From: Candidatus Iainarchaeum sp.
GTDB lineage: Archaea; Iainarchaeota; Iainarchaeia; Iainarchaeales; CSSED10-239
Assembly: GCA_003559395.1 (NCBI GenBank)
Contig: PWLL01000059.1
Coordinates: 1 to 9,617 of the forward strand
Length of the DNA stretch: 9,617 nt
Reading direction: 5' to 3'
How positions within the stretch are numbered: the stretch's first letter is position 1; the number at the start of each line of letters is the position of its first letter. The translations under genes and the position numbers were made by a program. A model generated the notes under the pieces. The model was given only the letters and a program-made list of their open reading frames with translations, did no database searches and was not told where the DNA came from. Shown here one piece after another: positions 294 through 1,406 of the stretch.

Positions 294-1406
294 ATGATAA
301 AAAAAATACTTTTAATAGGTTTAGATACAGAAAAAGGAAAAAAAGCCTTTGACTTTTTTATCAATTATCCAGAAAAATATAAAATCTCTGATGTTTGTTT
401 AGTATCAAATGAGATTTCTGAAGAAGATATTAAAAAAATAACTGAAAATAATATTAAAAATATATGTGTAAAAACAGAAACACAAAAAAAACAATTAGAA
501 GAAGCGGTTCCATTTAATATAAATGTTTGTATAAAACCTAATTTTTTTGTAAAACAATCAATTTCAGATATCGTTGTTTTTACAATAGATGATATAGATT
601 CTATTACACAAATATTAACAGCAATAAATGAATATAAAGACCTTTGTTTTTTTGATCTCACTCCTTTATTATATTGTGGAAAAATCATTTTTCAAGAAAT
701 AAGAAACAAAGCAATTAGGTTTTTTATAATCTCTGAAACAATCTATTCTGTAAATCAGACTCTTTTAAATAATAAAAATTCAACATTTAAAAAAATTGGT
801 TTAGTACGTACAATATACAATAAAGAATATTTAAAAAAGCCTACACAAAAAACATTTAATGAGTTTAAAGAACTTTTTTATAATGATTTTCATATAAATA
901 ATGTTTATGATATGTTTTTATTATCTTATATATATAATTTTAATAAAAATAGATTTGTTTTTGGTGAACAAAATAAACCAATTGCAAATAATATTATTAG
1001 TTTTTATGATGGTCGAAATATAATAGACTATATAACAAAAGATAACTATTCTATATTTAACAATTATTTTTTAGAAAAAAAAGATATATCTAAAAAGAAT
1101 CTTTCAAAAGAAGAAACAAAAACTATAACAAATTTATCTATAGATTTTATTGACTATAAAGAAAAACCATTGTTGTCTCTTGCAATAAAAGCACTAGATA
1201 AAAAAGGAACAGCTCCCATTTTATTTTTTATATGTGTAGAACATCTTATTAAAAAAATATATAATAAAAAAATGAAAATAAAAGATTTAGAAAAAACAAT
1301 AGAAGAAGTTGTTTTTAATCAAAAATATTACATCCAACACCCAGATGTTGCAGCAATAATATCTTTAAAAGAAAAAATAGAAGCAGATCTAGATAAGAAA
1401 CTATAA
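294..1406 (+). CDS. DXR-like protein (1-deoxy-D-xylulose-5-phosphate reductoisomerase fold) with degenerate cofactor and catalytic motifs. It is a probable pseudoenzyme of unknown function.
   Basis: The track ORF is 201-1406. I prefer ATG 294 (MIKKILLIG...) because the 31 codons from GTG 201 read as AT-rich intergenic sequence.

The protein is collinear with DXR by eye:
- KKILLIGLDTEKG vs K.ILGSTGSIG
- NYPEKYKISDV vs NP..F.V.AL
- RFFIISETIYSVNQTL vs LLPVDSEHNAIFQSL
- KPLLSLAIKALDKKGTAPILF...VEH vs YP.L.LA.EA...G...P..LNAANE

Its length (370 aa) is similar to DXR (about 390-400 aa). Confidence 0.6.
   Translation: MIKKILLIGLDTEKGKKAFDFFINYPEKYKISDVCLVSNEISEEDIKKITENNIKNICVKTETQKKQLEEAVPFNINVCIKPNFFVKQSISDIVVFTIDDIDSITQILTAINEYKDLCFFDLTPLLYCGKIIFQEIRNKAIRFFIISETIYSVNQTLLNNKNSTFKKIGLVRTIYNKEYLKKPTQKTFNEFKELFYNDFHINNVYDMFLLSYIYNFNKNRFVFGEQNKPIANNIISFYDGRNIIDYITKDNYSIFNNYFLEKKDISKKNLSKEETKTITNLSIDFIDYKEKPLLSLAIKALDKKGTAPILFFICVEHLIKKIYNKKMKIKDLEKTIEEVVFNQKYYIQHPDVAAIISLKEKIEADLDKKL

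Follow-up and report, generated by a model that had tools for sequence, protein, structure and literature searches.

Gal80p (GFO/IDH/MocA fold) and NmrA (SDR fold) are pseudoenzymes or regulators built on oxidoreductase folds, and both still bind dinucleotides as signals. For the family of DXR (IspC, EC 1.1.1.267), our literature search returned no description of a member that selection maintains although the catalytic apparatus is gone. Among DPANN archaea, Woesearchaeales and some Micrarchaeota have gained complete MEP pathways by transfer, and the dxr genes of Woesearchaeales subgroup J and some Micrarchaeota orders moved horizontally with the rest of that pathway (PMC8421398, PMC12892359, PMC6107057). 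Iainarchaeota have been reported with mevalonate-pathway genes (PMC10936187). A further active enzyme, DXR-II or DRL (Brucella and others), is an alternative DXP reductoisomerase that belongs to another protein family (PMC3847144).

Here we describe a DXR-like gene in a stretch of 9,617 nucleotides (contig PWLL01000059.1, Candidatus Iainarchaeum sp.), referred to in full as the window. Like the dxr genes of Woesearchaeales subgroup J and some Micrarchaeota orders, it is a DXR homologue of bacterial type carried by a DPANN archaeon; by analogy, such a transfer is a plausible route by which the family ancestor entered Iainarchaeota. Unlike those genes, which are bacterial-like and belong to complete or near-complete MEP pathways, the Iainarchaeota family is stand-alone, devoid of the motifs, and set apart by a gap in search scores. 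DRL has in common with it a "DXR-like" name and a link to the MEP pathway only, and is in effect its opposite, since the window protein is a true DXR-I homologue without the activity-defining residues. The resemblance to Gal80p and NmrA would lie in a Rossmann-type dehydrogenase scaffold that has lost catalysis and may be reused for binding or regulation; there is, however, no family-level homology to either, and the dinucleotide loop of the Iainarchaeota family is eroded and varies by sub-clade.

The locus and its gene

The features of the window considered here are as follows.

1..168, + strand: 3' part of a lysine/alanine-rich mini-ORF, with KKAPVKKKAVAK repeats of 36-nt period and a stop at 166-168
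194..230, + strand: inverted repeat AACACTTG...CAAGTGTT with a T8 run after it, in the spacer that separates the mini-ORF from the DXR-like gene
294..1406, + strand: DXR-like (pseudo-DXR) gene, from its ORF, DXR homology, DXR fold, orthologues, synteny, and purifying selection in orthologues
294..731, + strand: N-terminal Rossmann-like domain, residues 1-146 (boundary approximate), homologous to the DXR NADPH-binding domain
318..338, + strand: eroded dinucleotide-binding loop, GLDTEKG where DXR has GSTGSIG
648..662, + strand: FFDLT where DXR has LANKE (N124, K125, E126), from the alignment to E. coli DXR
732..743, + strand: S147-E148-T149-I150 where DXR has D150-S151-E152-H153, i.e., two metal ligands and substrate contacts
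732..1118, + strand: central domain, residues ~147-275, equivalent of the DXR catalytic and dimerisation domain
1161..1403, + strand: C-terminal helical domain, residues ~290-370, the DXPR_C equivalent, from PF13288, AF2, and the alignment
1401..2216, - strand: DTD2, archaeal-type D-aminoacyl-tRNA deacylase, from Pfam PF04414 (8.6e-41) and synteny

The DXR-like gene is a real gene of 370 codons plus a stop. At the composition of the window (A 46%, T 34%), 370 consecutive sense codons have a chance of ~3e-18. Shuffling the window 300 times gave no stop-free stretch longer than 159 codons, and the five alternative frames hold 15-48 stops. Its conserved start is the ATG at 294, M-x-K-x-I opens all orthologues, and an upstream extension to the GTG at 201 shows no conservation in them. 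The initial annotation had taken so long an open frame in AT-rich DNA as a sign of selection, and this probability, the intact orthologues, and the dN/dS value given below all agree with it.

The order of genes at the locus is constant: EF-2, the lysine-rich mini-ORF, the DXR-like gene, and the convergent DTD2 gene. In all syntenic loci the mini-ORF directly precedes the DXR-like gene, and DTD2, which overlaps the DXR-like gene by 6 nt at the 3' ends, is its invariant downstream neighbour. An archaeal-type context had been claimed for the gene, and the split RNAP A'/A'', L30e, S12, S7, EF-2, DTD2, and Dph6 are indeed present. The inverted repeat at 194..230 was read from the sequence, has a similar counterpart in locus L001, and was missed by the terminator scan because its loop is longer than 8 nt. 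As a putative transcript end, it suggests that the DXR-like gene is probably under its own promoter. The intrinsic-terminator scan returned none, and the sigma-70 promoter scan gave 13 against 12.5 in shuffled sequence, neither scan being designed for archaea; no known RNA family was found with Rfam in the window or in three syntenic loci. In the L009/L011 sub-clade, a 319-aa ORF considered as a fusion of orf117 to thymidylate kinase was rejected for want of BLAST similarity.

Clustered at 90% identity, the family amounts to ~23 clusters in a set of 5.8 billion proteins, and its named members all come from Iainarchaeota/Diapherotrites (Iainarchaeum) MAGs. Of 1.84 billion searched, 12 representatives scored at or below 1e-30, with canonical DXRs next at 1e-21; the gap in scores that sets the family apart from canonical DXRs runs from 1e-59 to 1e-21. 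The named ones among the nearest canonical DXRs are from scattered AT-rich bacterial MAGs (Gamma- and Deltaproteobacteria), from which no donor lineage can be inferred. MEP genes are absent from the window, where their lack had been pointed out at the outset, and from ±10 kb of 10 syntenic loci. The accompanying statement that archaea use the mevalonate rather than the MEP pathway agrees with what is reported for Iainarchaeota (PMC10936187) but is not a universal rule, given the MEP pathways of Woesearchaeales and some Micrarchaeota (PMC8421398, PMC12892359, PMC6107057). Family members are labelled DXR by JGI pipelines and hypothetical by NCBI; the JGI label is misleading.

Homology and predicted fold

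Searched on its own, the window protein scores poorly. With phmmer against the PDB it reached E=1.3 at best, and a match to DXR needed a family profile. Against Pfam it gave 6.8e-5 for DXPR_C (PF13288; 23.6 bits vs a gathering cutoff of 27) and 0.005 for DXP_reductoisom (PF02670; 18 bits vs 21.7), and among the NCBIfam models it gave 1e-11 for NF009114 (44 bits, the equivalog cutoff being 461); TIGR00243 scored 22 bits vs a cutoff of 316. A profile built from the family only, by contrast, matched solved DXRs over near-full length (6mh4, E=6e-16; 1r0k, 7e-13), and hhalign aligned the family and canonical DXR profiles over 369 columns with a probability of 100% and E=1.6e-39. The profile route thus yields a significant match where single-sequence Pfam scores stay below gathering. 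Across the family, a Pfam scan found PF02670 in 28 of 29 members and PF13288 in 19 of 29, whereas the catalytic-domain model PF08436 (DXP_redisom_C) was found in none of the 29 at E<=0.01; the nearest canonical match, P0191, does carry it.

Structure prediction points the same way. AF2 models built with canonical DXRs in the alignment (pLDDT 91.5, pTM 0.90) and with the family alone (pLDDT 91.3, pTM 0.90) are equally confident, and the top 50 PDB matches in Foldseek are all DXR (TM 0.78-0.84, identity 11-16%). The N-terminal domain shows an alternating beta-alpha pattern in both models, in keeping with the PF02670 matches and the hhalign alignment, and the C-terminal domain is modelled as helices spanning residues 292-369. 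Family profile, profile-profile alignment, model, and Foldseek therefore bear out the N- to C-terminal collinearity with DXR first noticed by eye, and the C-terminal KPLLSLAIKALDKKGTAPILFFICVEH segment aligns with DXR as had been read. Judged from these alignments, the window protein is homologous to DXR over its full length and, like canonical DXR, is predicted to retain the three-domain fold with the domains in the same order. Also common to both are G8, G14, G132 (window G129), the DG of the YQDGS strand, the P.L.LA...G segment, and the Glu of NAANE.

The former active site and the constraint on the family

We compared 25 NADPH, metal, and substrate positions, with E. coli DXR numbering verified on PDB 1k5h_A. 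The window protein is identical to E. coli DXR at 3 of them; the 22 changed positions include the otherwise invariant G11, K125, D150, E152, S186, H209, K228, and H257. Proper alignment does not restore the NADPH loop or the metal ligands, as it would for the divergent but active DXR against which the initial annotation had set its reading. On the verified numbering, three of the replacements that had been listed hold: GSTGSIG to GLDTEKG, LANKE to FFDLT, and the SGGPF region to TIY. The fourth, DSEH to ISET, is right as to the loss but not the register, which lies one residue rightward: DSEH falls on SETI in HMMER, MAFFT, and hhalign alike (D150 to S, S151 to E, E152 to T, and H153 to I).

The metal ligands D150, E152, and E231 correspond to S147, T149, and D206 in the window protein. 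An NKGLE-type Glu had been reported as missing and is in fact replaced, yet an acidic residue persists at this site because Asp206 occupies the E231 column. Among the lid positions and those in contact with substrate or phosphate (K125, S151, H153, S186, H209, W212, M214, S222, N227, K228, H257, and M276), the window protein keeps N227 alone. The SGGPF and HPxWxMG lid motifs of canonical DXR are gone, and the segment (residues ~171-190, pLDDT ~72) is several residues shorter than in DXR. NAANE has become ICVE, in which Glu316 alone is retained.

The same columns vary across the family. At the NADPH loop, G11 is replaced by T/N/S/R, T10 by D/N/Q, and G14 by S in 17 of 33 members, and in one sub-clade the loop gives way to a conserved basic one, [AG]SQRKKSQE. 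The K125 column holds L/T/W/P/S (entropy 2.2 bits). Among the metal ligands, D150 is S/T in 33 of 33 and E152 is Q/P/T, while E231 is H/D/E/N (H/D/E in 29 of 33); H257 is S/N in 30 of 33 members and H251 is Q in 16 of 19. Taken together, former site columns average 2.02 bits and the remaining columns 1.80 across the 33 family members (p=0.16), against 0.40 vs 2.06 in 37 canonical DXRs (p=7e-12). Former active-site columns are thus no better conserved than background in the family, i.e., their constraint is relaxed.

The gene as a whole, in contrast, is under purifying selection. Between loci L009 and L011 its dN/dS is 0.117 (dN 0.10, unsaturated dS 0.86), within the range of its neighbours, from 0.036 (EF-2) to 0.17 (DTD2). 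The pairs L011/L012 and L009/L010 were left out, having zero differences in the gene, as were the window vs L001 and remoter pairs because an identity of 26-54% spoils dS. Orthologues are intact in every family locus examined, where they share 26-48% identity with the window protein, and at least 12 syntenic loci carry orthologues at 26-54% identity. The gene is the fastest-evolving in the block (48% identity between the window and L001, vs 67-78% for neighbours). Purifying selection despite loss of the site means that the family must serve something other than DXR chemistry. Invariant family positions are mostly hydrophobic-core or structural (F21, L108, G129, I131, G240, Y258, and F259), together with K115/D116, and are often common to canonical DXRs too. 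The family's median pI of 8.9 is uninformative as a hint of nucleic-acid binding since neighbour proteins in this AT-rich genome are equally basic.

Pseudoenzyme, remodelled pocket, or enzyme

We suggest that the gene probably encodes a lineage-specific DXR-derived pseudoenzyme of Iainarchaeota (Diapherotrites, DPANN) that is kept by selection. The protein is a clear homologue of an enzyme family, lacks residues essential for catalysis, and is under purifying selection, all of which belong to the operational definition of a pseudoenzyme. The initial proposal of a DXR-derived pseudoenzyme or scaffold under selection is accordingly supported by homology, by fold, by the 3 of 25 sites, by PF08436 in 0 of 29 members, and by a dN/dS of 0.12. 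The predicted architecture is still that of DXR (Rossmann-like N-domain, central alpha/beta domain, C-terminal helical bundle), but the glycine loop for NADPH, two of the three metal ligands, the residues that bind phosphate, and the lid motif of the catalytic site are lost; from these losses, no conversion of DXP to MEP is predicted. The definition of a pseudoenzyme also calls for the absence of any catalysis, which would have indirect support here from former site columns that are no better conserved than background. Its history may have begun with a dxr gene acquired from bacteria, as elsewhere in DPANN; the enzymatic role would then have been lost, and a secondary, non-catalytic role would have held the gene under purifying selection. 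The present product would bind or scaffold without catalysing, probably still as a homodimer via the conserved central beta-sheet, with an old active-site cleft that would be partly lined by bulky hydrophobic and aromatic side chains instead of catalytic residues.

A neofunctionalised protein, in which a remodelled pocket binds or transforms another ligand (e.g., a hydrophobic or lipid-like molecule, or a nucleotide) via new residues and which would thus be an enzyme or receptor of new specificity instead of an inert scaffold, is the rival that fares best, and we hold it to be unlikely but worth weighing. New residues are fixed at old site columns (S/T at D150, S/N at H257, Q at H251, and H/D/E at E231), and such new polar residues could mark a functional pocket rather than a pseudoenzyme. 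Several site positions are now bulky (H153 to F/I/L, K228 to L/V, K125 to L/W, G215 to F/Y, and E234 to L). The SQRKKSQ loop, conserved in and specific to one sub-clade, might bind something, and strong purifying selection also favours such a pocket. Old site columns as a set are, however, no more conserved than background, and the replacements vary by sub-clade (G11 as T/N/S or R, E231 as D/E or H, and N227 variable or W), which argues against one shared ligand. The invariant residues, K115/D116 apart, are mostly structural or of the hydrophobic core, and no cofactor motif is recognisable.

A highly divergent yet active DXR, drifted under extreme AT bias and fast DPANN evolution, is strongly disfavoured and, to our minds, very improbable. 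The full-length DXR fold, the JGI label, the acidic residue in the E231 column of the window protein, and the real MEP genes of some DPANN archaea (PMC8421398, PMC12892359) could be cited for it. Against it, 22 of 25 functional positions are changed, the lid motif is gone, the score of 44 bits is far from the equivalog cutoff of 461, and the gene has no MEP neighbours within ±10 kb at the loci compared, in a lineage for which mevalonate-pathway genes are reported (PMC10936187). Composition alone does not explain the loss, since canonical DXRs that are AT-rich and come from similar environments retain every motif. A decaying pseudogene, or a spurious ORF merely resembling DXR, might be suspected from the fast evolution of the gene and its weak single-sequence database scores but is refuted by the improbably long open frame (~3e-18), the intact orthologues at every family locus examined and their ~23 clusters, the dN/dS of 0.12, the confident family-only AF2 model, and the hhalign match (E=1.6e-39).

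Returning to a DXR-derived protein with a new role, we consider it possible, if doubtful, that these archaea, host-dependent and with reduced genomes, have repurposed the DXR scaffold for a new molecular function. It might, for instance, bind or carry a hydrophobic or isoprenoid-like ligand in the greasy former cleft, or it might serve as a partner to the machinery for translation or tRNA quality control. The fixed place directly after the rpo-S12-S7-EF-2 block and the back-to-back arrangement with DTD2 would be in keeping with a housekeeping role. If the repurposing were true, the DXR family would have its first described descendant that is non-catalytic or neofunctional.

As a pseudoenzyme, the window protein would place DXR among the enzyme families from which pseudoenzymes are known to have arisen, and the family would offer a natural scaffold-only version of an antibiotic target. 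Surveys of MEP-gene presence and absence in DPANN feed the debates on the "lipid divide" and horizontal transfer, and might take this family as evidence for part of an MEP pathway in Iainarchaeota, which would almost certainly be wrong. A predicted non-enzyme of 370 residues, kept in very small genomes within a constant housekeeping block, points to a non-dispensable function.

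Homology of the 294-1406 product to DXR

The plus-strand frame is open from a GTG at 201 through the stop at 1404-1406. All orthologues start at the methionine that matches the ATG at 294 (M-I/K-K-K/N-I...), and the stretch between this ATG and the GTG is not conserved in them; the gene is thus 294-1406, 370 codons, as first annotated. The region is 80% A+T, and at its own base composition 370 sense codons in a row have a probability of ~3e-18. Across 300 shuffles of the whole window, no stop-free run exceeded 159 codons, and each of the region's other five frames contains 15-48 stops.

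[quoted passage not shown] With its relatives included, the signal is unambiguous. A profile from the six closest proteins matched solved DXRs nearly end to end (6mh4, 6e-16; 1r0k, 7e-13), and profile-profile comparison of 29 family members with 26 canonical DXRs gave 100% probability (E=1.6e-39, 369 columns, 18% identity). An AlphaFold2 model of the window protein had a pLDDT of 91.5 and a pTM of 0.90; a control whose alignment lacked canonical DXRs (91.3 and 0.90) left the order of secondary structures unchanged. With either model, the top 50 Foldseek hits in PDB were all DXR (TM 0.78-0.84, identity 11-16%). Hence, the N- to C-terminal collinearity that the initial annotation saw by eye is real rather than spurious, and it spans all three DXR domains. 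Pfam recognizes the N-terminal domain in 28/29 members, the C-terminal domain in 19/29, and the central catalytic domain (PF08436) in 0/29.

Functional sites and selection

Our site alignment combined 33 family members with E. coli DXR and 36 further canonical DXRs, the E. coli numbering having been checked against PDB chain 1k5h_A. The window protein equals E. coli DXR at only G8, G14, and N227 among 25 NADPH, metal, and substrate positions, and proper alignment did not restore the motifs.

Residues of the window protein at E. coli DXR sites
GSTGSIG: GLDTEKG; G11 is T (family R/T/N/S)
N124-K125-E126: D-L-T
D150-S151-E152-H153: S147-E148-T149-I150
S186: T
H209, W212, M214 (lid): T, T, N; segment shortened, lower confidence (pLDDT ~72)
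S222: N
K228: N (family L/V)
E231: D (family H/D/E)
H257: N (family S/N)
M276: N

The replacements of GSTGSIG by GLDTEKG and of LANKE by FFDLT were therefore read correctly from the start. DSEH is likewise gone, but HMMER, MAFFT, and hhalign agree on a register shifted rightward by one residue from the ISET originally proposed. AT-rich canonical DXRs of comparable metagenomes keep every motif intact, so the loss takes more than compositional drift to explain. Separately, two unrelated DXR homologues on Logan contigs of 2-6 kb have partly eroded catalytic motifs: P0027 (GSTGKVG; LDDEP for DSEH; ATYYASD for NAANE) and P0028 (GSTGVTG, FASKD, LDNEL). DXR catalytic residues may have been lost more than once.

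Mean entropy of the 25 site columns is 0.40 bits in canonical DXRs, versus 2.06 bits elsewhere (p=7e-12), making them far more conserved than the other columns. In the family, the values are 2.02 versus 1.80 bits (p=0.16), with no excess conservation. Hydrophobic or aromatic residues make up most of the invariant or near-invariant family positions (F21, F22, L108, L126, I131, Y214, F237, Y258, F259, and Y323); also conserved are glycines and K115/D116, the latter pair often shared with canonical DXRs. Bulky apolar residues occupy former site positions (H153 to F/I/L, K228 to L/V, K125 to L/W, G215 to F/Y, and E234 to L). Because the site columns are no more conserved than the rest, the conserved positions are mostly hydrophobic or aromatic, and the replacements vary by sub-clade, we lean toward a non-catalytic protein. 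A neofunctionalised enzyme or binder, the rather less probable reading, could account for the few positions fixed to new polar residues (D150 to S/T in 33/33, H257 to S/N, H251 to Q, and E231 to H/D/E); differences between sub-clades argue against one shared new ligand, leaving room for sub-clade-specific ones. An active DXR, with site identity to E. coli at 3/25 positions, is effectively excluded. The pI is uninformative on function, the whole proteome being basic.

For two syntenic loci, L009 and L011, whose DXR-like proteins are 81% identical, the gene gave dN=0.10 and dS=0.86.

dN/dS between L009 and L011
EF-2: 0.036
S7: 0.079
SHMT: 0.082
dCMP deaminase: 0.092
DXR-like: 0.117
DTD2: 0.170

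Between the window and locus L001, the DXR-like gene is 48% identical and its neighbours 67-78%. It is thus among the faster-evolving genes of its block, yet under clear purifying selection, as the initial annotation had argued from the open frame, and is not a pseudogene; decay has next to no probability and is effectively excluded.

Distribution and genomic neighbourhood

Searched exhaustively with an HMM, 1.84 billion representative proteins gave 12 matches at E<=1e-30, three of them fragments; the lowest-scoring full-length match was at 1e-59. Below the threshold came one more family fragment at 1e-25, then a gap, then canonical DXRs from 1e-21, with no intermediates in this search. Among 5.8 billion clusters, ~23 of the family turned up in a word-indexed search. 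Organism-named members are all 'Candidatus Diapherotrites archaeon', 'Candidatus (I)ainarchaeum sp.', or 'archaeon' MAGs of 22-29% GC. A large sub-clade (P0015, P0174-P0189; e.g., L009 10001-11164 and L011 10001-11155) carries a conserved basic L-[AG]-S-Q-R-K-K-S-Q-E exactly at the GSTGSIG position, with His in the E231 column and Trp in the N227 column. This loop, His, and Trp could be sub-clade-specific functional sites.

All sufficiently long loci share one gene order: rpoB, rpoA', rpoA'', L30e, S12, S7, EF-2, a 0.5-0.7 kb spacer, the DXR-like gene (+), and DTD2 (-), an archaeal-type D-aminoacyl-tRNA deacylase gene. The last two overlap at their 3' ends by 6-14 nt in the syntenic loci. Beyond DTD2 lie genes of nucleotide metabolism (Tmk, SHMT, ThyX or DHFR, and a kinase-dCMP deaminase). 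The split RNAP A subunit, EF-2, DTD2, and Dph6 mark the context as clearly archaeal. Adjacency of the DXR-like gene to EF-2 and DTD2 is conserved, which is in itself no sign of a functional link.

Other features of the window
1-168 (+): Lys/Ala-rich mini-ORF; KKAPVKKKAVAK repeats, 36-nt period x4.1, pI about 12
2325-2678 (+): 117-aa ORF directly after DTD2
2715-3374 (+): 219-aa ORF; SHMT N-terminal ~180 residues joined directly to DHFR C-terminal ~70
3402-4208 (+): DUF429 gene (Pfam 5e-17)
4215-5306 (+): P-loop kinase (AAA_17/18) and dCMP/cytidine deaminase fusion
5308-6852 (-): 514 aa; asparagine-synthase-type ATP-pyrophosphatase domain fused to archaeal diphthine-ammonia ligase (Dph6)

Every locus has an extremely basic Lys/Ala-rich mini-ORF between EF-2 and the DXR-like gene (L001 9662-9847; L004 9707-9835; just upstream of the DXR-like genes in L006, L007, L008, L009, and L011). 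Repeat expansion and contraction make its length vary widely, with 11 aa in L007 at one extreme and at least 55 aa in the window at the other. Its product is reminiscent of histone-H1-like or nucleoid-associated tails. An inverted repeat and T-run follow it in the window and L001, so the DXR-like gene is probably transcribed on its own.

The 117-aa ORF has no match in Pfam or NCBIfam and is kept at 30-73% identity in L001, L003, L004, and L006-L008, as a conserved hypothetical protein of the window's lineage. Where the window has the 219-aa ORF, L006, L007, L009, and L011 have full-length Tmk, SHMT (405 aa), and ThyX and/or DHFR. Apparently, the window's lineage has lost its thymidylate-synthesis cluster through deletion of Tmk, the intervening gene(s), and one half each of SHMT and DHFR; the junction resembles a deletion scar left by genome reduction, or is possibly an assembly artefact. 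The DUF429 gene occurs in the window alone, with no tblastn match in L001-L008, and is thus a lineage-specific insertion adjoining the scar. The kinase-deaminase fusion, kept across syntenic loci, scores 126 bits against NCBIfam 'anti-phage dCTP deaminase' (cutoff 400); with Tmk, SHMT, and ThyX as neighbours, a housekeeping role in pyrimidine salvage is likelier for this enzyme than an anti-phage one. The Dph6 fusion scores 244 bits against TIGR03679, above its cutoff, and is conserved in L001, L009, and L011.

A DXR-shaped protein in a probable mevalonate-pathway lineage

No MEP gene occurs in any syntenic stretch that we examined, in line with the initial annotation. Its premise that archaea do not use this bacterial isoprenoid pathway needs qualification, since Woesearchaeales and some Micrarchaeota are reported to have complete MEP pathways, ascribed to horizontal transfer (PMC8421398, PMC12892359). 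For the phylum Iainarchaeota the premise appears to hold, from our syntenic stretches and from published surveys that list these archaea as mevalonate-pathway DPANN (PMC10936187; PMC6107057).

The family has a stable, DXR-shaped protein that lacks a recognizable NADPH loop, two of three metal ligands, the phosphate-binding residues, and the lid motif, and selection has kept it in a single archaeal lineage, where its place in the chromosome is fixed. It is a true DXR-I homologue, yet fails the functional tests that define that family; our literature search found no paper on such a motif-less homologue. Alignment, fold, and dN/dS support the original interpretation as a pseudoenzyme or scaffold. 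A bacterial dxr may have been transferred into an archaeon that used the mevalonate pathway or depended on a host, where its enzymatic role became redundant, and a secondary non-catalytic role would now keep the protein. It is probably still a dimer, because the DXR dimer-sheet strands (F221-x-F223...Q226; F237-x-D239-G240) are among the best-conserved segments.

The family is small, and this case alone opens no long-standing question. NCBI annotates family proteins as hypothetical and JGI as DXR (compared for P0002, P0005, P0006, P0008, P0174, P0178, P0183, P0185, and P0206), and the JGI label could yield false MEP-pathway calls in Iainarchaeota. The DXR-like protein makes a clean and well-supported case of a pseudoenzyme, one with consequences for annotation in surveys of the MEP pathway among DPANN archaea.
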